64,000 bases of DNA, taken from NCBI GenBank assembly GCA_030531205.1, contig JAUNOC010000007.1, forward strand, positions 2,073 through 66,072, written 5' to 3'. Both the position numbers and the translations under genes were made by a program. The notes under the pieces were generated by a model. The model saw only the letters and a program-made list of their open reading frames with translations. It searched no databases and had not been told where the DNA came from. Of the stretch, positions 22,853 to 44,198 are shown piece after piece; positions within the stretch are counted from its first letter, which is position 1, and each line of letters starts with the position of its first letter. The DNA is from Phascolarctobacterium sp. GTDB lineage: Bacteria; Bacillota; Negativicutes; Acidaminococcales; Acidaminococcaceae.

Positions 22853-24088
22853 ATGGATTTATTTGAGATGGCCAAAGTTCCTATGGCCGCTGCTGAAAAA
22901 GCAATGAACCTTGACCCCGGTGCTGCAGCAATCATTGCAGAGCCCGAGCGTGTTTTGGAAGTACATATTCCCGTAAGAATGGATGATGGTTCCCTGAAAG
23001 TATTTACCGGTTTCCGTGCCCAACACAGCACAGTGCTTGGCCCGGCAAAGGGCGGTGTACGTTATCACCCCTCAGTTTGTTTGGACGAAGTAAAAACCTT
23101 GAGTTTCTGGATGACCTGTAAATGCGCAGTTGCCGGCTTGCCCTATGGCGGCGGCAAAGGCGGTATTATCTGTGACCCGCAAAAAATGAGTCAAAGAGAA
23201 TTAGAGAGAATGACCCGTGGTTACATTGACCGTATTGCTCCCTGTATCGGCGAGAAATTGGATATTCCTGCCCCTGATATGAACACCAATGGTCAGGTAA
23301 TGGCGTGGATGATGGACGAATACAGCAAGATTAAAAACCAATATGAACCGGGCTTTATCACCGGCAAACCTTTGGGCATGGGCGGCTCTGAAGGCCGCAC
23401 TGCCGCTACCGGTTTGGGTGTAGTGGTTGCAGCAATGGAAGCAATGAAGGTTAAGAAAATTGACCCCAAGAAAGCAACCGTTGCCGTGCAAGGCTATGGT
23501 AATGTAGGCAGTTGGACTGCTAAACACTTTGCCAAGAGAGGTTGCAAAGTGGTGGCACTTTCCGATATCAAGGGCGGCATCTATAACCCTAAAGGATTTG
23601 ATATGAAGAAATTAGATGCTTACTATGAAAAGAAGAGAACATTACACGGCTTCCCCGGCGCTAAAGAAATCACCAATGCAGAACTCCTGGCATTGCCCGT
23701 AACCGTTTTGGCACCCTGTGCAATGGAATTGCAACTGACCAAAGACAATGCGGACAAAGTAAGGGCAAAGATGATTGTGGAAGGCGCTAACGGGCCTACC
23801 ACTCCGGATGCAGACAAGGTATTTGACAAGAAAGGTATTTTTGTAGTGCCTGATATTCTTGCCAACGGCGGCGGTGTAACCGTATCCTATTTTGAATGGG
23901 TGCAGAACCTGTACCGTTATTTCTGGACTGAAAAAGAAGTTGTAGAAAAACAGACCGAAATGATGAAACGGGCATTCAAGAATGTTTATGAAACATCCAA
24001 AAAATATAAAGTTAATATGCGTGTGGCCGCATATTGCGTAGCATTGAATGCAATGGCAATGCCGATGAAAATGCGTGGCATTTATTGA
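22853..24088 (+). CDS. gdh: Glutamate dehydrogenase (Glu/Leu/Phe/Val dehydrogenase family)
   Basis: 411 aa. KGGVRYHP and GLPYGGGKGG motifs, plus the GYGNVG dinucleotide-binding motif. Confidence 0.92.
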   Translation: MDLFEMAKVPMAAAEKAMNLDPGAAAIIAEPERVLEVHIPVRMDDGSLKVFTGFRAQHSTVLGPAKGGVRYHPSVCLDEVKTLSFWMTCKCAVAGLPYGGGKGGIICDPQKMSQRELERMTRGYIDRIAPCIGEKLDIPAPDMNTNGQVMAWMMDEYSKIKNQYEPGFITGKPLGMGGSEGRTAATGLGVVVAAMEAMKVKKIDPKKATVAVQGYGNVGSWTAKHFAKRGCKVVALSDIKGGIYNPKGFDMKKLDAYYEKKRTLHGFPGAKEITNAELLALPVTVLAPCAMELQLTKDNADKVRAKMIVEGANGPTTPDADKVFDKKGIFVVPDILANGGGVTVSYFEWVQNLYRYFWTEKEVVEKQTEMMKRAFKNVYETSKKYKVNMRVAAYCVALNAMAMPMKMRGIY

Positions 24089-24089
24089 T

Positions 24090-24120
24090 AAAAAAATCCG
24101 CCGAAAGGCGGATTTTTTGT
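24090..24120 (+). terminator. Rho-independent terminator after gdh
   Basis: AATCCGCC gaaa GGCGGATT followed by TTTTT. Confidence 0.85.
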
Positions 24121-24134
24121 TGCGGCGGTGCCAC

Positions 24135-24191
24135 AATGAAAAGTTAAAAGTTAAAAATGAAAAATTATGGTAGGATGTTCCTGTGATTATA
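24135..24191 (+). repeat. Heptamer tract (GAAAAGT TAAAAGT TAAAAAT GAAAAAT) plus a solo element TIR
   Basis: ATGGTAGGATGTTCCTGTGATTATA at 24167-24191 matches the family TIR. No core or second TIR follows. Confidence 0.7.
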
Positions 24192-24206
24192 TTTCAGAAT
24201 GTTTTA

Positions 24207-24215
24207 TGATATAAT
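24207..24215 (+). promoter_or_regulatory. Extended -10 promoter element TGATATAAT
   Basis: Fits the TGnTATAAT consensus, 44 nt upstream of the HAD-like CDS. The same 19-nt block recurs at 26001-26020. Confidence 0.45.
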
Positions 24216-24258
24216 ATTAAAATAACCATTCAAAAAATAATTAAGCGGAGTATAAGAA

Positions 24259-25329
24259 ATGAAAAATTTATTGTTGGCTTGTTTGACAGTTTTATATCTA
24301 TTGGCAAACACTTGTCCTGTTGTCCAGGCCATGTGTCGGGAAGACATAGCAAAGATAAATATCAGACGGGAAAAACATTTTAAGTATTGGACGGCGGATT
24401 CAAATGCTAAAAAAATTTTGGTTGAATATGTTAAGGATGTTGTTAATCCCAACAGCCAAAATTTTATCCCCGTGCCGGAGAGGATTGCGGTATTTGATTG
24501 TGACGGCACTTTGATTGGTGAGCGTAACCCTTACTATTTTGAAGGACTGATGCTTTTGTACCGTAATGCCGACCCCAATGTACCTCTAAAATGCAAAAAT
24601 GCAAAAGCAACGGCTCAAATAAGGTCAATAATTGACGGAGGTTCTATGCCGTCACAGGTGTGGCAGGAATTGGAACAGGCATATGTGGACTGTTTAGCGG
24701 GGCAGACACCTGAGGAGTACAGGGAATATGTACGGCATTATATAACTACCGAAAAGGTTGAAGGTTATTCCAATCTTAAAATTGGGGAAGAGTTCTTTTT
24801 GCCCATGGTTGAAATAGTATCTTATCTGCGGAATAACAAGTTTTCAATATATATTGTTACGGGGAGCGAGCGGGACGAAATGCGTGTTTATTGTGAACCG
24901 CTGAAGATACCCTATCAAAACATAATTGGCAGTGACCACAGCATTACAACGGAGAAAATGGGAAGTTCTGACAGCAGCAGATATTTTTATGGTGCTGCCG
25001 GAAATGAAAAAATAGTGCGTGGCAACGAACTGACTGCAAAAAATCTTAATTTCAACAAAATTATCGCCATGAACAGGGAGATTGGCATGCGTCCTGTGCT
25101 GGCATTTGGCAATGGCTCCGGTGATATGGGAATGTTCAATTATACGGTTATGAATAATAAGCACCGTACTTTGGCTTTTGCGGTGTTGTGCGATGACACG
25201 GAACGGGAAAACGGAAGTTTGAAAAGTGCGGAGAAGATGCGGAAGAATTGTGAAAAATATGGATGGATTCCCATTTCTATGAAAAATGACTTTGCCACTA
25301 TTTATGGCTATGATGTGAAAAAACTATAA
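24259..25329 (+). CDS. Secreted HAD-superfamily hydrolase (SerB-like phosphatase family)
   Basis: N-terminal signal-like segment MKNLLLACLTVLYLLANTCPVVQA. HAD motif I FDCDGTL and the C-terminal GNGSGDMGM motif. Confidence 0.7.
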   Translation: MKNLLLACLTVLYLLANTCPVVQAMCREDIAKINIRREKHFKYWTADSNAKKILVEYVKDVVNPNSQNFIPVPERIAVFDCDGTLIGERNPYYFEGLMLLYRNADPNVPLKCKNAKATAQIRSIIDGGSMPSQVWQELEQAYVDCLAGQTPEEYREYVRHYITTEKVEGYSNLKIGEEFFLPMVEIVSYLRNNKFSIYIVTGSERDEMRVYCEPLKIPYQNIIGSDHSITTEKMGSSDSSRYFYGAAGNEKIVRGNELTAKNLNFNKIIAMNREIGMRPVLAFGNGSGDMGMFNYTVMNNKHRTLAFAVLCDDTERENGSLKSAEKMRKNCEKYGWIPISMKNDFATIYGYDVKKL

Positions 25330-25359
25330 TTACTGCTCACTGCATTTTTCTGACGAGTA

Positions 25360-25419
25360 AAAATAAAAAAAGCGCCAAAATTATATACACTTGACCCTAA
25401 ATGTATATAATTTTGACGC
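25360..25419 (-). terminator. Minus-strand-oriented rho-independent terminator
   Basis: A 19-bp AT-rich stem (GCGCCAAAATTATATACAC / ATGTATATAATTTTGACGC, 2 mismatches). On the minus strand it is followed by TTTTTTTATTTTT. There is no T-run on the plus strand. Confidence 0.5.
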
Positions 25420-25458
25420 TAAAGCAAAAAGCAAAAGGAAAAAATTTTTACGTGATGT

Positions 25459-25499
25459 CCAATCTGATATCAGATTGGGGTAAGTCTGATATCAGATTG
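25459..25499. promoter_or_regulatory. Palindrome pair U1: a 20-bp perfect palindrome plus a 12-bp core copy
   Basis: CCAATCTGATATCAGATTGG (25459-25478) and TCTGATATCAGA (25485-25496). Confidence 0.6.
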
Positions 25500-25514
25500 A
25501 GCGTTAAAAAAATT

Positions 25515-25545
25515 AATTAGCACGCAAGTGCTAATTTTTATTTTC
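25515..25545. terminator. Bidirectional terminator-like hairpin
   Basis: AATTAGCAC gcaa GTGCTAATT, flanked by AAAAAAA upstream and TTTATTTT downstream. Confidence 0.6.
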
Positions 25546-25590
25546 TGATTGAAATCATAAAAATTATTTTGTGGCGAACGCCGAAGGCGA

Positions 25591-25606
25591 AATCTTATAT
25601 AAGATT
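25591..25606. promoter_or_regulatory. 16-bp perfect palindrome of the same motif class
   Basis: AATCTTATATAAGATT. Confidence 0.55.
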
Positions 25607-25653
25607 GAACATACACCGAAAGAAAAATTTTGTAAAACTTTTGGTGATAGCTG

Positions 25654-25691
25654 AATATCATATGAGATTGGGTGCAATCTCATATGATATT
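25654..25691. promoter_or_regulatory. Palindrome U2: 17-bp perfect inverted repeat with a 4-nt loop
   Basis: AATATCATATGAGATTG ggtg CAATCTCATATGATATT. Like U1, it is followed by RRCGTTAAAAAAAT. Confidence 0.6.
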
Positions 25692-25718
25692 GGACGTTAA
25701 AAAAATAAATGCCATGTT

Positions 25719-25818
25719 TGCCCTCTTGGTGAAGAGGGTGGATTGCCCATAGGAACATAGAAGGGCAAGACGGGTGATTGCTCACTGCGAAGTTCTCAAC
25801 CCCTTCACCAAGGGACCT
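25719..25818 (-). repeat. Core-only fragment of the element family (inverted relative to copy A2)
   Basis: CCCTCTTGGTGAAGAGGGTGGATTGCCCATAGGAACATAGAAGGGCAAGACGGGTGATTGC... aligns with 28704-28790 and with the reverse complement of 40525-40583. Confidence 0.7.
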
Positions 25819-25837
25819 TTCTTATTTTTTCTCTTAC

Positions 25838-25965
25838 TATGTATAATAGACATGAGAATGAATTTTATAACCAAAATGGCAGAAAAATTTTAATTTTCTT
25901 TATTATATATAATAGACACGAGTTTTGCTTTTGCAACCAAAATGGGAAAGAAAATCTCTAATTTC
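25838..25965 (+). repeat. Two tandem ~61-62-nt direct repeats, 66-bp period
   Basis: TATGTATAATAGACATGAG...AACCAAAATGGCAGAAAAATTTTAATTTTC compared with TATATATAATAGACACGAG...AACCAAAATGGGAAAGAAAATCTCTAATTTC. Confidence 0.6.
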
Positions 25966-26007
25966 ACGATTAAAGTATAGTTTCTGTTTCATTTGGTGTA
26001 GTTTTTA

Positions 26008-26016
26008 TGATATAAT
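26008..26016 (+). promoter_or_regulatory. Extended -10 promoter element TGATATAAT upstream of the DUF2075-like gene
   Basis: Fits the TGnTATAAT consensus. Embedded in GTTTTTATGATATAATATT, which is near-identical to 24201-24219. Confidence 0.45.
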
Positions 26017-26107
26017 ATTTATATCTATTCTCGCCCCCAGTCAGGGGAGGGGTTGTTTGCAGTTGTAAGTTAGATAAATGTGTAGAAAGGATATCTGCAT
26101 AAATATT

Positions 26108-28099
26108 ATGGCTAAATATACATTTGCAACCAAAGAAGGTAAGGCATATTATTACAATTCAATACCGGATTTTATTAAAGATGATGGTAATAGCATAATA
26201 GGGCAGTTAGTAGAACATTCTTTTCAAGTTGAAAAGGAGCAAACAGATGCTTGGAGTTATCAAATTACTGAATTGCAAACTCGTTTACAGGATGCAGGAG
26301 TGAGTGGCGATATCATTTTTGAATATGACATTGTACGTCTTGGTAAACGCATTGATGTCATTTTATTAATACGTCACATGGTATTTTCTATTGAGTTTAA
26401 AAACGGTAAGAATATTTTTACTGCGCAAGACGCTCAGCAAGCAGAAGACTATGCTTTAGATATTAAAAACTTTCATAAAGAGTCCGAAAATCTATATGTT
26501 TGCCCCATATTGGTAGCTACACATGCTCCTAAATATCATAAAGAGCAAGAACTTAAATGTTATACTGATAAACAAGTGTATTTGCAAAGGGAAAATATTG
26601 AGACATTAATACCTAAAGTAAATGAAGTGGCTAGTAAATATGGCGATGATGAAAAGATTGATTTTGAAAAGTGGTTTAATTCGCCATATTACCCAACACC
26701 GACTATTATTGCAGCAGCCGTTGAAGCATATAAAACCCATAATATTAGTGATATAGCAAAATCAGCTGCGGGACAAGCAAATATAGAAGCATGTGAAAAG
26801 GAAATTAATGACATTATTGAGTACGCTAAAAGTAATCATAAAAAATGTATTTGTTTTGTAACAGGTGTTCCTGGTGCAGGTAAAACGCTTGTTGGTTTAG
26901 ATGTAGTAGCAAAAAACCTTGATAAAGGCGAAAAAAATATGAGCGTTTATTTATCTGGTAATGGTCCATTAGTTGAAGTTTTACAAGAAGCACTTATTAA
27001 GAGTACGAAGATAAAAGGAACTACAAAACGCGAAACGCAAACGGCTGTATCAGCGTTAATTCAAGGAAGTTATGCATTCAAAAAAGCGCATGCTAATGAT
27101 GAAAATCCCATACCTGAAAATATCTTGATTTTTGATGAGGCACAACGTGTTTGGAATGTTCAAAAGATGGCATCTAAACACAAAACAGAAGGAATGGCTG
27201 TCAGTGAATCGTATTTATTTTATAAGATTATGGACAGAAAAAAGGACTGGGCAGTAATGATTTGTTTAGTAGGGCTCGGGCAAGATATTTATGATGGTGA
27301 AGTAGGCATTAATGAGTGGTTTAGATGTGGCATTAATGATTTTAAAGATTGGGAAATATTCTATTCGTCAGATATTTTTGATCAATTAGAAGATAAGAAC
27401 ATTGATAGACAAGCGATTGAAGGATGTAATAGATGTCATATTAAATTAGGATTACATTTAAAAACGTCTGTAAGGTCATTCCGTGCGGATAAGCAGAGTG
27501 CTTTTGTAGATAATTTGTTGGCAAATAATTTAGTAGATGCATCTAAACTATATGAACAAATAGTGCAGAAATATCCTTTATATATTACTCGTGATTATTC
27601 ATTGGCTAAATGGTGGGTACGTCAACAGGTTAGAGGTTCACAACGTTGTGGCGTTTTGGCAAGCAGTAGTGCACAGCGGTTAAAACCAGAGGGAATTTAT
27701 ATTCCTAAAGATATTGATGTTAAAAATTGGTTTTTAGCTCCAAGCACGGATTTGCGGTCGTCAAATAGATTGGAAGTAGTTGCAAGTGAGTTTGATGTAC
27801 AAGGATTAGAAATTGATTGGGGACTTGTATGTTGGGACGCTGATTTAAGACGTAAAGGTGATGATTGGGATTACTACAATTTTAGAGGAGCAAAATGGAC
27901 TAAACGAAACAAAATAGAAACGCAGCGCTATTTGTTAAATTCTTATCGTGTGTTATTAACACGTTCAAGACAAGGTATGGTAATTTTTGTTCCTAAGGGT
28001 GTAAATAAAGATGAGGATGAAACAAGAAACTATAAGTTTTATGATGGTATTTATAATTACTTGTTGTCATGTGGTATTAAAGAACTAAAGAAAAAGTGA
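26108..28099 (+). CDS. PD-(D/E)xK-like nuclease domain fused to a P-loop SF1-like ATPase (DUF2075 / Schlafen group-3 helicase-like)
   Basis: N-terminal ...EYDIVRLGKRIDVILLIRHMVFSIEFKNG...DYALDIKNFH. Walker A is GVPGAGKT and Walker B is ILIFDEAQ. The C-terminal YRVLLTRSRQGMVIF resembles helicase motif VI. Visibly AT-rich. An alternative ATG exists at 26078. Confidence 0.75.
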   Translation: MAKYTFATKEGKAYYYNSIPDFIKDDGNSIIGQLVEHSFQVEKEQTDAWSYQITELQTRLQDAGVSGDIIFEYDIVRLGKRIDVILLIRHMVFSIEFKNGKNIFTAQDAQQAEDYALDIKNFHKESENLYVCPILVATHAPKYHKEQELKCYTDKQVYLQRENIETLIPKVNEVASKYGDDEKIDFEKWFNSPYYPTPTIIAAAVEAYKTHNISDIAKSAAGQANIEACEKEINDIIEYAKSNHKKCICFVTGVPGAGKTLVGLDVVAKNLDKGEKNMSVYLSGNGPLVEVLQEALIKSTKIKGTTKRETQTAVSALIQGSYAFKKAHANDENPIPENILIFDEAQRVWNVQKMASKHKTEGMAVSESYLFYKIMDRKKDWAVMICLVGLGQDIYDGEVGINEWFRCGINDFKDWEIFYSSDIFDQLEDKNIDRQAIEGCNRCHIKLGLHLKTSVRSFRADKQSAFVDNLLANNLVDASKLYEQIVQKYPLYITRDYSLAKWWVRQQVRGSQRCGVLASSSAQRLKPEGIYIPKDIDVKNWFLAPSTDLRSSNRLEVVASEFDVQGLEIDWGLVCWDADLRRKGDDWDYYNFRGAKWTKRNKIETQRYLLNSYRVLLTRSRQGMVIFVPKGVNKDEDETRNYKFYDGIYNYLLSCGIKELKKK

Positions 28100-28161
28100 A
28101 TTGGTTTGTCCTTCCTTTAATGCGGGGGTTATAACAGGTGATATGTGGTTGTTTATTTTGG

Positions 28162-28201
28162 GGAAATTCCGTAATTTCCACGTGGAAATTACGGAATTTC
28201 C
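28162..28201. repeat. 40-bp perfect palindrome
   Basis: GGAAATTCCGTAATTTCCAC|GTGGAAATTACGGAATTTCC, verified base by base. Lies 62 nt after the DUF2075-like stop. Confidence 0.9.
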
Positions 28202-28399
28202 ATTTGTTGAAAAAAATTTAAAGGCGAGGTTTTTAACCTCCTATATATACAAGACGAAAAAATATTCAAATTGTAGATATTGTCAAAAAAAAAATTTTAA
28301 AAAAATTGTTATGTACCATATTTGACCCACTCCTTATGCTATCATAAACCCATAGCAAGAAGAGAGAACTCTTCATAAAATTTTAAGGAGGTGCGGAAA

Positions 28400-28591
28400 A
28401 TGTTGGAATGTCCACGCTGCGGCAGCAGCAAATTGGTTACGAAGAGTGACAAGCATAATTTTTGGTTGGGTACTGACAAACTGAAGATTAAAAAGGATTA
28501 TGGCTGGGGTATGGGAAATACCAGTGTGCCAGATGATAAGGTGGTTTGTCAGGAATGTGGTTATGTGTTCAAACCCGGATGGAGTAGGTAA
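28400..28591 (+). CDS. Small zinc-ribbon protein (63 aa)
   Basis: CPRCG ... CQECG (two CxxC pairs). AAGGAGG lies 8 nt upstream of the ATG at 28400. A strong terminator follows immediately. Confidence 0.6.
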   Translation: MLECPRCGSSKLVTKSDKHNFWLGTDKLKIKKDYGWGMGNTSVPDDKVVCQECGYVFKPGWSR

Positions 28592-28592
28592 C

Positions 28593-28620
28593 AAAAAAAA
28601 CGGCGAAAGCCGTTTTTTTG
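28593..28620 (+). terminator. Rho-independent terminator
   Basis: AAAAAAAA CGGC gaaa GCCG TTTTTTT. Confidence 0.8.
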
Positions 28621-28935
28621 TTAGTTAAAAGAGATAAGAGATGGTAAGAGGTATCAGGTGTCAGGTTTCAGGTTAGAGGGAAGTTAGCATCAAGCGGACT
28701 TTGCCCTCTTTGTAAAGAGGGTGGATTGCCTAAAGGAACATAGAAAGGCAAGACGGGTGATTGCATACTGCAAAGTTCTCAATCCTCAGTCGGCTACGCC
28801 GCCAGCTCCTTCACCAGGGAGCCAAAAGTTAGCAATATGGTGAACTTAAATAATTTCAATTACAGGAACATATTACCATCATTGTGAATTATGCATTTTG
28901 AATTGTGAATTACAATTGTGAATTATCAATAATAG
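28621..28935 (-). mobile_element. Degenerate element copy D: heptamer tract, inverted core, one TIR, heptamer tract
   Basis: AGGTATC AGGTGTC AGGTTTC AGGTTAG AGGGAAG (28649-28683). The core 28684-28850 aligns with the reverse complement of copy A2. The TIR ...CAGGAACATATTACCAT ends at 28879. ATTGTGA ATTATGC ATTTTGA ATTGTGA... spans 28881-28929. Confidence 0.65.
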
Positions 28936-28944
28936 TGGTATAAT
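28936..28944 (+). promoter_or_regulatory. Extended -10 promoter element TGGTATAAT for gatCAB
   Basis: Fits the TGnTATAAT consensus, about 30 nt upstream of gatC. Confidence 0.45.
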
Positions 28945-28975
28945 ATAAAAAAATATTCTAAAAAGGAGATTTGTG

Positions 28976-29260
28976 ATGGTTACTAAAGAGGATGTAAAAT
29001 ACATCGCAGCGTTGAGCCGCTTGACTGTTCCCGAAAATGAATTGGAAAAATTCACCGAGCAGTTTAATCAGATTTTGGATTATGCGGACAAACTGCAGAA
29101 ATTGGACACCAAGGGGATTGAACCCACTGCTAATGTGCTTCCTGTGAGCAATGTATTCCGTGAGGATGTGGCGTTGCCCGGTGTGAGCCATGAGGATGCT
29201 TTGAAAAATGCTCCTGCAGAGCATAATGGGGGCTTTAAGGTTCCCCGTGTGTTGGAATAA
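28976..29260 (+). CDS. gatC: Asp/Glu-tRNA(Asn/Gln) amidotransferase subunit C
   Basis: ...[34 protein letters not shown]... is canonical GatC. The ATG at 28976 lies 7 nt after GGAG. A GTG at 28973 is also possible. Confidence 0.9.
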
Positions 29261-29271
29261 GGAGGGCTGCA

Positions 29272-30738
29272 ATGAACTTGTTTGAACTGACAGCCCACGA
29301 GGCACACGAAAAGTTAGTGAAAAAAGAGGTCAGCAGCGTTGAACTTACAAAGGCGTTGTTTGACCGTATTGATAAGGTGGAAAAGGATGTCCGTGCCTAT
29401 GTAACTTTGGACAGGGAGAATGCGCTTGCCCAAGCGAAAAAGGTGGATGACTTGTTGGCTGCCGGTAAGGCAGTTCCTGCTTTGGCAGGTGTGCCGGGGG
29501 CTATTAAAGATAATATTTCCACTTTGGGTTTGCGGACAACTTGTTCCAGCAAGATTTTGGAAAACTTTATTCCTATTTATGATGCTCATGTTATTGCCAA
29601 TCTCCGCAAGGATGAAACAATTTTCTTGGGCAAAACCAATTTGGATGAATTTGCTATGGGTTCCACTACGGAAACCAGTTATTTTGGTGCCAGCCACAAT
29701 CCTTGGAAATTAGATTGTGTGCCCGGTGGTTCCAGCGGTGGCAGTGCGGCTGCCATTGCGGCAGGTGAAGCGGTTTGGACTTTGGGCAGTGATACGGGCG
29801 GTTCCATTCGTCAGCCGGCATCATTCTGCGGTTGTGTTGGTTTGAAACCTACCTATGGTCGTGTAAGTCGTTACGGCTGTGTGGCGTTTGCTTCTTCTTT
29901 AGACCAGATTGGCCCCATCACCCGTGATGTTACGGATGCGGCTTTGGTGTTGAATACAATCTGTGGCAAGGATGTTCACGATGCTACCAGTTTGGATGTG
30001 GAAGTTCCTGATTTCACAAAGGCGTTGGTAGCGGATGTGAAGGGGATGAAGATTGGTCTGCCGAAAGAATATTTTAGCGAGGGTGTTGACCCGAAAGTTA
30101 AGGACTGCGTTATGGCGGCGGCAAAGAAGTTTGAGGAGATGGGGGCAACGATTGTTGATATTTCCCTGCCGCATACGGAATATGCTGTTACCACTTACTA
30201 TATCATTGCTCCGGCAGAGGCCAGTGCCAACCTTGCCCGCTTTGACGGTGTGCGTTACGGGCATAGGAATATGGAAGCGGCAAGCGCTCCCGAAATGACG
30301 GCTATAAGCCGTACTGAGGGCTTTGGTGCAGAGGTACGCCGCCGTATTATGTTGGGCACTTATGTTTTGAGCAGCGGGTATTACGATGCTTATTACAACA
30401 AGGCAATGCAAGTGAGAACTTTAATCCGCCGTGATTTTGAAGATGCCTTCAAGAAGGTGGATGTAATTCTTACTCCCACTTGCCCTGTAACTACTTTTAG
30501 TTATAGCGACAAGATGGATCCTTTGAGCATTTATATGTTGGATGTAAGCACTATCCCTGTGAATATGGCAGGGCTTCCCGGAATTTCCGTTCCTTGCGGT
30601 TTTGTGGACGGTAAGCCGGTGGGACTGCAACTGATTGGTAAGGTGTTGGATGAAAACAGTATTTTGCGTGCTGCCTTTACTTATGAGCAGGCAACTGATT
30701 TTCACAAACAATTTGCACCTTTGGGAGGTAACAAATAA
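29272..30738 (+). CDS. gatA: Glutamyl-tRNA(Gln) amidotransferase subunit A
   Basis: 488 aa. Amidase signature [12 protein letters not shown] and ...[12 protein letters not shown]... Confidence 0.95.
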
Positions 30739-43971: not shown

Positions 43972-44198
43972 GTGGTAATATGTTCCTGTGATTATATTAG
44001 ATTACCCCTTCATTTTGGGAGGGGAGGGCCGATACTGGAACGTGGACCGGCGGGGTGAGCGATTATGTAGTGACAAAGTTTTCGGAGTAATCTGCACCCC
44101 CAGTCGCAACCAAGTTCCGAAAAGCGACAGCCCCCGCAAGGGCGGGGGCTACTTATGTTCCTGTAACTTGTTATATAATCACCGGAACATTTTACCAT
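43972..44198 (+). mobile_element. Complete 227-bp TIR-bounded non-coding element, copy G
   Basis: The left end GTGGTAATATGTTCCTGTGATTATAT matches the reverse complement of the right end, ATGGTAAAATGTTCCGGTGATTATAT (about 26 nt). Confidence 0.75.

Follow-up and report, generated by a model that had tools for sequence, protein, structure and literature searches.

The question raised by this locus is whether a solitary, AT-rich gene in a gut bacterium encodes an antiviral enzyme. The gene lies at positions 26108-28099 (+ strand) of a 64,000-nucleotide stretch of DNA from Phascolarctobacterium sp. (assembly GCA_030531205.1, contig JAUNOC010000007.1, positions 2,073 to 66,072 of the forward strand), which we call the window. 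A preliminary description, made from the sequence alone, had proposed that it encodes a PD-(D/E)xK-like nuclease fused to a DUF2075 helicase-like ATPase, a candidate single-gene defence module. Our results support that reading in substance. The protein has intact nuclease and ATPase motifs and the domain folds of a nuclease and a helicase, it belongs to a family with an experimentally verified member, and its gene was horizontally acquired and sits in a defence hotspot. We consider it likely that the protein is a functional Nhi-like defence nuclease-helicase that acts on the nucleic acid of an invader.

The defence role, originally offered as an inference, is now supported by a full-length match in a PADLOC run, by the site in which the gene lies, and by a verified homologue. 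In PADLOC-DB, the profile PDC-S41 (PDLC05014; PDC stands for phage defence candidate) matched amino acids (aa) 22-671 of the open reading frame (ORF) across profile positions 3-654 of 657 (E = 5.4e-238, 789.6 bits), and the same profile was matched by 72 of 72 diverse homologues. A literature search for 'PDC-S41' found no paper. Nhi-like was described by Millman et al. (2022) as system SG141 from Bacillus cereus FSL H8-0482 (gene 2729017301), was verified in B. subtilis, and was said to have no sequence identity to Nhi; the sequence given in that work's supplement (supplementary file 11) comprises the first 399 residues. This 399-aa stretch and the window protein are colinear, with 30% identity over 397 aa (E = 5e-43), and the stretch matches PDC-S41 at 6.5e-76 and the PADLOC profile 'Nhi' at just 6e-7. 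A longer protein from a B. cereus megaplasmid, WP_173602619.1 (611 aa), is 95% identical to the verified fragment and aligns with aa 18-636 of the window protein at 29% identity over 641 columns (E = 2e-66); the two have all their catalytic and helicase motifs in common. Because the verified protein matches PDC-S41 and aligns colinearly with the window protein, the PADLOC candidate PDC-S41 is, on sequence grounds, the verified Nhi-like family, and the window protein belongs to it.

The family is large. An exhaustive search of 1.84 billion cluster representatives retrieved 4,152 relatives, 760 of them at E<=1e-30, and since most of these are full-length (about 650-690 aa), the two-domain architecture is conserved. 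Members are spread patchily over about 15 phyla, which is consistent with horizontal transfer; they occur in 47 plasmid records, of which 43 are Bacillus megaplasmids, and in 1 of 50,697 phage genome records. A full-length homologue with 42% identity was also found in a Marine Group I thaumarchaeote single-cell genome (L075:10001-11965), which points to cross-domain transfer or contamination. Equating PDC-S41 with the verified Nhi-like family upgrades thousands of annotations (the 4,152 representatives, clustered at 50% identity). The finding for the window itself is more modest, in that a gut Negativicute member is added to a validated, mechanistically unsolved family whose genes PADLOC flags automatically.

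The proposed nuclease pattern, E...D...ExK, is borne out by conservation and by structure prediction. Residues are numbered here from the probable true start (M11 of the ORF, ATG 26108; add 10 for the 673-aa ORF), and conservation was read from an alignment (A1) of 78 homologues that are 29-51% identical to the window protein. The N-terminal domain, as delimited by the domain model, Foldseek and the family profile matches, occupies aa 1-245 (26108..26842, +) and consists of a helical lead-in with an invariant W49, a PD-(D/E)xK core at aa 43-137 (26234-26518), and a family-specific linker with W189 and a Y194-P-x-P-x-I motif. The predicted catalytic residues fall within 26321..26452 (+): E72 (26321-23), D83 (26354-56) and E96 (26393-95) are invariant, and K98 (26399-401) is present in 77 of the 78 homologues, as are each of Q111 (26438-40) and Y115 (26450-52). 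The last two form a QxxxY motif, which is typical of RecB-type PD-(D/E)xK nucleases; K98, Q111, Y115 and H123 are kept in at least 73 of the 78.

Searches of PDB sequences, with either the whole protein or an N-terminal profile, gave nothing meaningful, and structure prediction was therefore needed. A separate AlphaFold model of residues 1-212 (predicted local distance difference test score, pLDDT, 92.0) has a core in the order alpha-beta-beta-beta-alpha-beta, and Foldseek matched this model almost only to PD-(D/E)xK nucleases (best E = 2.9e-4, probability 0.98), among them the nuclease domains of Can2, Card1 and Cdn1, as well as VC1899, McrC, R.BspD6I, Hjc resolvases, Bax1, Dna2, DdmD and RecB. 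In Pfam, the N-terminal part yields only a sub-threshold NERD match, and NERD, PDDEXK_9, HSDR_N and Cas4 match weakly in some family members. The model and the conserved residues confirm the N-terminal domain as a predicted PD-(D/E)xK nuclease with an intact metal-dependent active site, and its substrate, by analogy with Nhi, would be DNA.

The assignment of the remainder of the protein to DUF2075 also held. Pfam PF09848 (SLFN-g3_helicase, formerly DUF2075) matches ORF aa 256-639 over profile positions 1-353 of 354 (E = 6.6e-70), which places a superfamily 1 (SF1) helicase or P-loop ATPase domain ('Schlafen group 3 helicase') at aa 246-629 (26843..27994, +). The SF1 motifs I, II, III, V and VI are all present and conserved, namely Walker A, TGVPGAGKT (26861-26887); Walker B, LIFDEAQRVW (27125-27154); motif III, LVGLGQDI (27266-27289); motif V, EFDVQGLEID (27788-27817); and motif VI, NSYRVLLTRSRQGMVIFVP (27938-27994), all on the + strand. 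Across the 78 homologues, Walker A (G253-x-P-G-x-G-K259-T260), Walker B (D343-E-A-Q-R347), QGLExD (565-570) and N611-x-Y-R-V-L-L-T-R619-x-R621 are invariant or nearly so, and the strictly invariant positions include W49, G253, P255, G256, K259, T260, D343, R347, G389, Q565-G-L-E568, D570, N611, R614, R619 and R621. An AlphaFold2 model of the whole chain, computed with the homologue alignment as input, reached a pLDDT of 92.4 and a predicted template-modelling score (pTM) of 0.91. Foldseek matched it to human SLFN11 and SLFN14 and then to RecD, Upf1, Sen1 and coronavirus nsp13, all of them SF1 helicases. No significant family was found in NCBIfam or PHROGs (NCBIfam recD, 16 bits against a cut-off of 310).

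The preliminary description had also named Nhi as a kindred system, and this kinship stands at the level of domain architecture, whereas the closest validated relative is Nhi-like. With the B. cereus Nhi-like protein, the window protein shares full-length colinearity, E..D..ExK, QxxxY, the YxPxPxI linker, Walker A and B, GxGQ, QGLExD and YRVxLTRxR, together with the PDC-S41 hidden Markov model match and a single-gene organization. The two differ in sequence (about 29-30% identity), in length (611 aa against 663 aa in the window protein), and in location, since Nhi-like is carried on a megaplasmid and the window gene occupies a chromosomal hotspot in a different phylum-level lineage, the gut Negativicutes. 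Nhi itself (SERP2475 of Staphylococcus epidermidis) is the only biochemically characterised model of such a nuclease-helicase (Bari et al. 2022). It has the same order of an N-terminal PD-(D/E)xK domain and a DUF2075 SF1 helicase in one polypeptide, and it too is a single gene that is horizontally spread and found near other defences. In contrast, it has no family-level sequence match with the window protein: the PADLOC Nhi profile matches only the P-loop region (profile positions 198-279 of 470, E = 1.9e-5), which falls short of membership, and similarly weak matches occur in 21 of the 72 family members. Nhi further carries an additional C-terminal glyoxalase/bleomycin-resistance-like domain that, per Pfam, the window protein does not have. 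Escape from the two systems differs as well, as it maps to the phage single-stranded DNA-binding protein (SSB) for Nhi and to a phage DNA methylase for Nhi-like.

The site of the gene gives a second line of evidence. The gene order is rpoA, rplQ, a YfbR-like HD nucleotidase, glutamate dehydrogenase, a weak HAD-like hydrolase, the nuclease-helicase, a 63-aa zinc-ribbon protein, gatCAB and a P-type ATPase, and we compared the site with contigs of other samples that encode an identical GatC. The left flank is common with contig L014 up to about 25942, and the right flank is common with L013, L014, L015, L017 and L020 from about 28202-28290. This flank comparison delimits a strain-specific, low-GC cargo of about 2.3 kb (25950..28240) that comprises the promoter, the gene and a palindrome, with the nuclease-helicase as its sole gene. 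Conspecific strains do not have the nuclease-helicase at this site and carry other defence cargo there: L014 (760-6013) has two type II methyltransferases and a type II restriction enzyme, and L013 (1-7425) has an HNH restriction endonuclease, a C5 methyltransferase, the three-gene PDC-M33A/B/C system and PDC-S55. No recombinase is visible in the hotspot cargo of the window, L013 or L014. The interval just ahead of the zinc-ribbon gene and gatCAB is a defence hotspot whose content differs between strains of the species, and the nuclease-helicase gene is a horizontally acquired single-gene cassette within it. As a natural example it is clean: restriction-modification, PDC-M33, PDC-S55 and PDC-S41 cassettes are exchanged at one chromosomal site upstream of gatCAB in Phascolarctobacterium, with no visible recombinase.

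A separate observation concerns PDC-M33. Its genes (74, 619, 288 and 235 aa, the last with DUF6339) directly adjoin a PDC-S41 homologue on a mobile element (L008:12191-15845), and PDC-M33 is also an alternative cargo at the window's own hotspot (L013:2177-6022); PDC-M33 and PDC-S41 appear to travel in the same gene pool.

The contexts of homologues agree with a defence role in the near clade and are mixed beyond it, so that homologues are not consistently found among housekeeping genes. For homologues with 72-74% identity, all from gut metagenomes, five of five independent contexts are defence islands carried by mobile elements. The neighbouring genes include NACHT, NgoFVII, Z1, Vsr, C5 methylase, AIPR, DUF4420, GmrSD, NOV_C, PLD-UvrD and PDC-M33-like clusters, and the mobile-element genes nearby are Rep, a serine recombinase, ParAB and DUF2800/PDDEXK_1. 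In the gut-Firmicute clade, the gene lies within clusters of C5 methylase, Vsr, Z1, AIPR, DUF4420 and NgoFVII or NgoMIV (L002:9580-11992; L027:8001-10429; L024:4531-9992; L028:3407-9989), and its reading frame and Vsr overlap in two of the contexts. A family-wide link to C5 methylase, Vsr and Z1 was considered and rejected, as such neighbours occur in only 3 of 80 diverse loci from reference genomes of about 15 phyla (L051, L086 and L092) by a phmmer test of limited sensitivity that used few seed proteins; the association is confined to the one clade. The B. cereus orthologue is found near Shedu SduA and an HNH endonuclease.

As the preliminary description had noted, the gene has no evident partner. 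Among the proteins encoded by two genes on either side in 34 diverse loci, no conserved partner was found (maximum recurrence, 2-3 of 136 proteins). These neighbours include defence genes (Upx, DRT UG30, AbiU, PDC-S13, type II methyltransferases) and housekeeping genes (aspartyl-tRNA synthetase, acetyl-CoA carboxylase). Because no neighbour family recurs, the protein works without a conserved partner and is often inserted singly, as in the window. A side observation from one gut-Firmicute contig is that two short PF09848 ORFs (121 and 71 aa; L027:15590-16231, - strand) lie 5.6 kb from an intact homologue and look like the remains of another DUF2075 gene that has decayed within this defence island.

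As to how the protein might act, the C-terminal SF1 (DUF2075) motor would bind nucleic acid and use ATP to drive translocation or unwinding, and it would be coupled to the N-terminal Mg2+-dependent PD-(D/E)xK nuclease, which would nick or degrade invading phage DNA. By analogy with S. epidermidis Nhi, the outcome would be a block of phage DNA accumulation. In Nhi, a PD-(D/E)xK 3'-5' exonuclease and nickase occupies the first 230 aa and has almost no activity within the complete protein; Nhi restricts the build-up of phage DNA and protects fully, and bipolar helicase activity and an SSB-linked specificity have been reported for it as well. If the window protein behaves similarly, its nuclease is probably inactive until the motor engages a phage-specific feature.

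The best lead for that feature comes from the B. cereus protein, since phages escape Nhi-like by losing a DNA methylase (Stokar-Avihail et al.). Because escapers lose the methylase, the trigger is likely to be either methylated phage DNA or the methylase as such. Under the first option, DNA modified by a phage-encoded cytosine methylase would set off ATP-driven, type IV-like restriction, and the clade-specific embedding among C5 methylase and Vsr genes fits the methylase-escape phenotype of Nhi-like in a suggestive way. Nhi-like/PDC-S41 would then be a modification-dependent, ATP-driven restriction enzyme, with foreign cytosine methylation as the mark it reads, an idea that we regard as possible but doubtful. 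It would make the window copy a stand-alone type IV-like enzyme, a cassette shuffled into a recombinase-less hotspot that is marked by a conserved palindrome, and we put this forward just as tentatively. The likeness to ATP- or GTP-dependent type IV enzymes such as McrBC and SauUSI lies in an NTP-driven motor joined to a nuclease (McrC, a PD-(D/E)xK protein, is among the fold matches) and, if Nhi-like senses phage-encoded methylation, in the same biological logic. In contrast to these enzymes, the window protein has no homology to McrB (an AAA+ GTPase) or to known readers of 5-methylcytosine (m5C), and no modification-reading domain was identified in it; the type IV likeness would thus be a possible, unproven working mode and not family membership. 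Foreign cytosine methylation is nevertheless a testable trigger lead that emerges from the data.

Several points weigh against a defence nuclease-helicase of this kind. Identity between the window protein and the verified Nhi-like protein is only about 29%, the defence role here is a prediction, and the neighbours in diverse genomes are often housekeeping genes, with a strong defence-island signal only for the gut-Firmicute clade and this hotspot. Can2 and Card1, which are top fold matches of the modelled nuclease domain, also cut RNA, which leaves DNA as an unproven substrate. No convincing Shine-Dalgarno sequence is found at either candidate start (26078 or 26108). With respect to the trigger, the methylation lead comes from one sentence and a figure in a preprint on the B. 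cereus protein; methylase escape could mean that the methylase protein is sensed and not methylated DNA; and the close homologues are often encoded together with C5 methylases, which is awkward for a simple attack on m5C DNA unless sequence context matters.

An alternative that we consider unlikely, though the most probable of those weighed, is that the protein is an abortive-infection effector, that is, a triggered nuclease that degrades host and phage nucleic acid alike and kills or arrests the cell. One S. aureus homologue of Nhi is toxic when induced, and Dazbog, another system that phages escape through loss of a methylase, acts as an abortive-infection system. The fold of the nuclease domain matches Can2 and Card1, which are collateral nucleases of type III CRISPR systems. 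There is also a match to AbiO (E = 3.9e-6), but it is weak and partial (profile positions 27-244 of 468, short of full-length membership) and is seen in 19 of the 72 family members. S. epidermidis Nhi, moreover, is reported to limit phage DNA accumulation and to give full protection, and sequence by itself distinguishes neither mode.

The preferred reading, a defence nuclease-helicase directed at the invader's nucleic acid, has also to be set against a function for the mobile elements themselves, either in excluding rival plasmids, integrative and conjugative elements or prophages (as DdmDE and Wadjet do) or as an element's replication or maintenance helicase-nuclease. This we regard as improbable. 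The close homologues do lie on elements with Rep, serine recombinases, ParAB and DUF2800/PDDEXK_1, the family is present on the Bacillus megaplasmids mentioned above (43 of the 47 plasmid records), and DdmD and Dna2 are among the weaker fold matches. In contrast, the window gene stands alone in a chromosomal cassette that lacks an element backbone, a recombinase and Rep, and the verified homologue protects against phage; anti-plasmid activity would extend the defence role and not replace it.

We judge it very improbable that the protein targets RNA in the manner of human SLFN11, with DUF2075 sensing single-stranded DNA or another nucleic acid and the N-terminal nuclease then cutting tRNA or other RNA. 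The resemblance is real at the C-terminus: PF09848 is the helicase domain of the group 3 Schlafens, which include the human proteins SLFN11, SLFN14 and SLFN5 and share with the window protein an antiviral role (predicted here) and a nuclease upstream of the motor, and the whole-chain fold is matched best by SLFN11 and SLFN14. Single-stranded DNA on the SLFN11 helicase domain has been published to activate the SLFN11 tRNase, and some PD-(D/E)xK enzymes (Can2, Card1) cut RNA. The nuclease parts, however, differ. Bacterial Schlafen defence proteins (2026) are defined by a Schlafen-core RNase with an Ex4ExK active site, whereas the window protein has an N-terminal PD-(D/E)xK fold with QxxxY, and neither it nor its 72 relatives has a Pfam match to a Schlafen nuclease domain. 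As the Schlafen RNase core is missing, the protein, judged by its domains, is not a Schlafen; the analogous N-terminal domain of Nhi cuts DNA.

A housekeeping role in DNA repair or replication, as a helicase-nuclease like RecD, Dna2 or AddAB, could be argued from RecD, Dna2 and RecB among the fold matches and from some housekeeping neighbours in diverse genomes. It is essentially excluded because the gene varies between strains (conspecifics have other defence cargo in its place), and it is further opposed by the low GC and foreign composition, the patchy spread over about 15 phyla, and the lack of an NCBIfam equivalog at cut-off.

Turning to the gene itself, the ORF at 26078..28099 (+), 673 aa, is confirmed in the ORF list of the window and is intact, so the reading frame given in the preliminary description stood; its start very probably did not. 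The true start is very probably ATG 26108, 30 nt downstream of 26078, because an NCBI protein that is 100% identical (P0001, 'MAG: DUF2075 domain-containing protein [Phascolarctobacterium sp.]', 663 aa) and all close homologues begin at the equivalent of M11, the latter with the N-terminus MxKYxF...GKAYY. Together with the PDC-S41 match, this gives a coding sequence for an Nhi-like/PDC-S41 nuclease-helicase at 26108..28099 (+; 663 aa plus stop). The gene had rightly been called AT-rich: its GC content is 0.338, compared with 0.447 at 15-24 kb and 0.444 at 29-40 kb, and the region that holds it is the sole strongly AT-rich stretch in the window.

An extended -10 promoter-like element, TGATATAAT, was located exactly where it had been described (26008-26016, +), about 92 nt upstream of ATG 26108, and we infer from its sequence and position that it may be the gene's own promoter. 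A consensus promoter scan did not list this element, its -35 being weak. As a separate observation, a 22-nt promoter-like string that begins TTTTATGATATAATATT occurs both at 24202-24223, before the HAD-like gene, and at 26003-26024, before the defence gene (91% identical; repeat family D8). A strong bidirectional hairpin at 25371-25420 follows the upstream gene, and a perfect 20+20-nt palindrome (28162..28201, +; inverted repeat I3, 100% complementary) lies 63 nt past the stop codon. The palindrome is listed as terminator-like, forms an 18-bp hairpin in the centroid fold, and has no second copy in the window; it is probably a transcription terminator or a cassette-boundary element. With the hairpin after the upstream gene and the palindrome following the stop, a monocistronic unit is plausible. 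An Rfam scan of 24000-29500 gave no match at gathering score.

The same 40-nt palindrome (GGAAATTCCGTAATTTCCAC/GTGGAAATTACGGAATTTCC, 28162-28201), together with the motif CTATATATACAAGACGAAAA (28241-28260), marks the right cargo junction, and a shorter motif, CTATATATACAAGAC, can be read at 28241-28255. Variants of the palindrome and motif, sometimes in duplicate, are present at the hotspot in L013 (6855-6909 and 7016-7055), L015 (135-276) and L017, and none is found elsewhere in the window. The palindrome and CTATATATACAAGACGAAAA could be terminators or recombination sites at the cassette boundary.

The preliminary description had placed the gene in an island bounded by mobile-element debris, and this part we reject. 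No transposase or integrase remnant was found in any flanking ORF, and the repeats around the gene are native REP-like (repetitive extragenic palindromic) intergenic repeats. An intergenic motif of about 22 nt, GGTAGGATGTTCCTGTGATTAT, occurs in six copies (22407, 24169, 32285, 40450 and 43974 on the + strand, and 44175-44196 on the - strand) where none is expected by chance, and further copies flank the hotspot in other strains. In this genome the motif constitutes a REP-like repeat family. We also considered two 86-nt direct repeats (25717-25802 and 28700-28785, 90% identical) as candidate att sites and rejected them, as their presence is independent of the cargo. The right copy is missing at L013, L015, L017 and L018 and is present elsewhere whatever the cargo, an inverted partial copy is found at L013:7203-7239, and the shared flanks reach inside the repeats. 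On the + strand, the fold of the 86-nt repeat is more stable than those of shuffled controls (z = -2.8 and -3.3). The repeat has no Rfam match and may be a small structured intergenic element or one resembling a miniature inverted-repeat transposable element (MITE).

Of the genes that adjoin the cassette, that for the 63-aa double-CxxC zinc-ribbon protein (28400-28591) keeps its place next to the hotspot in every strain, independently of which cargo is present. Pfam gives the protein a match below threshold to Lar, a restriction-alleviation protein (E = 0.0018; 18.9 bits, cut-off 28.6), which may be due to chance. On the other side, the HAD-like hydrolase gene (24259-25329) has a low GC content (0.387 in the 24-25 kb bin) and a signal-peptide-like start, and the exact protein was found on one 1.25-kb contig only, from the same sample as the defence gene; the HAD-like gene may be accessory too. 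The 750-nt non-coding stretch upstream of the nuclease-helicase gene contains two more local repeat pairs. One is a hairpin-containing 57-nt unit (25461-25517 and 25654-25710, copies 77% identical), and the other is a tandem pair with a spacing of 66 nt and TATAAT-like strings (25834-25887 and 25900-25953), the second copy of which lies at the left cargo junction common with L014.

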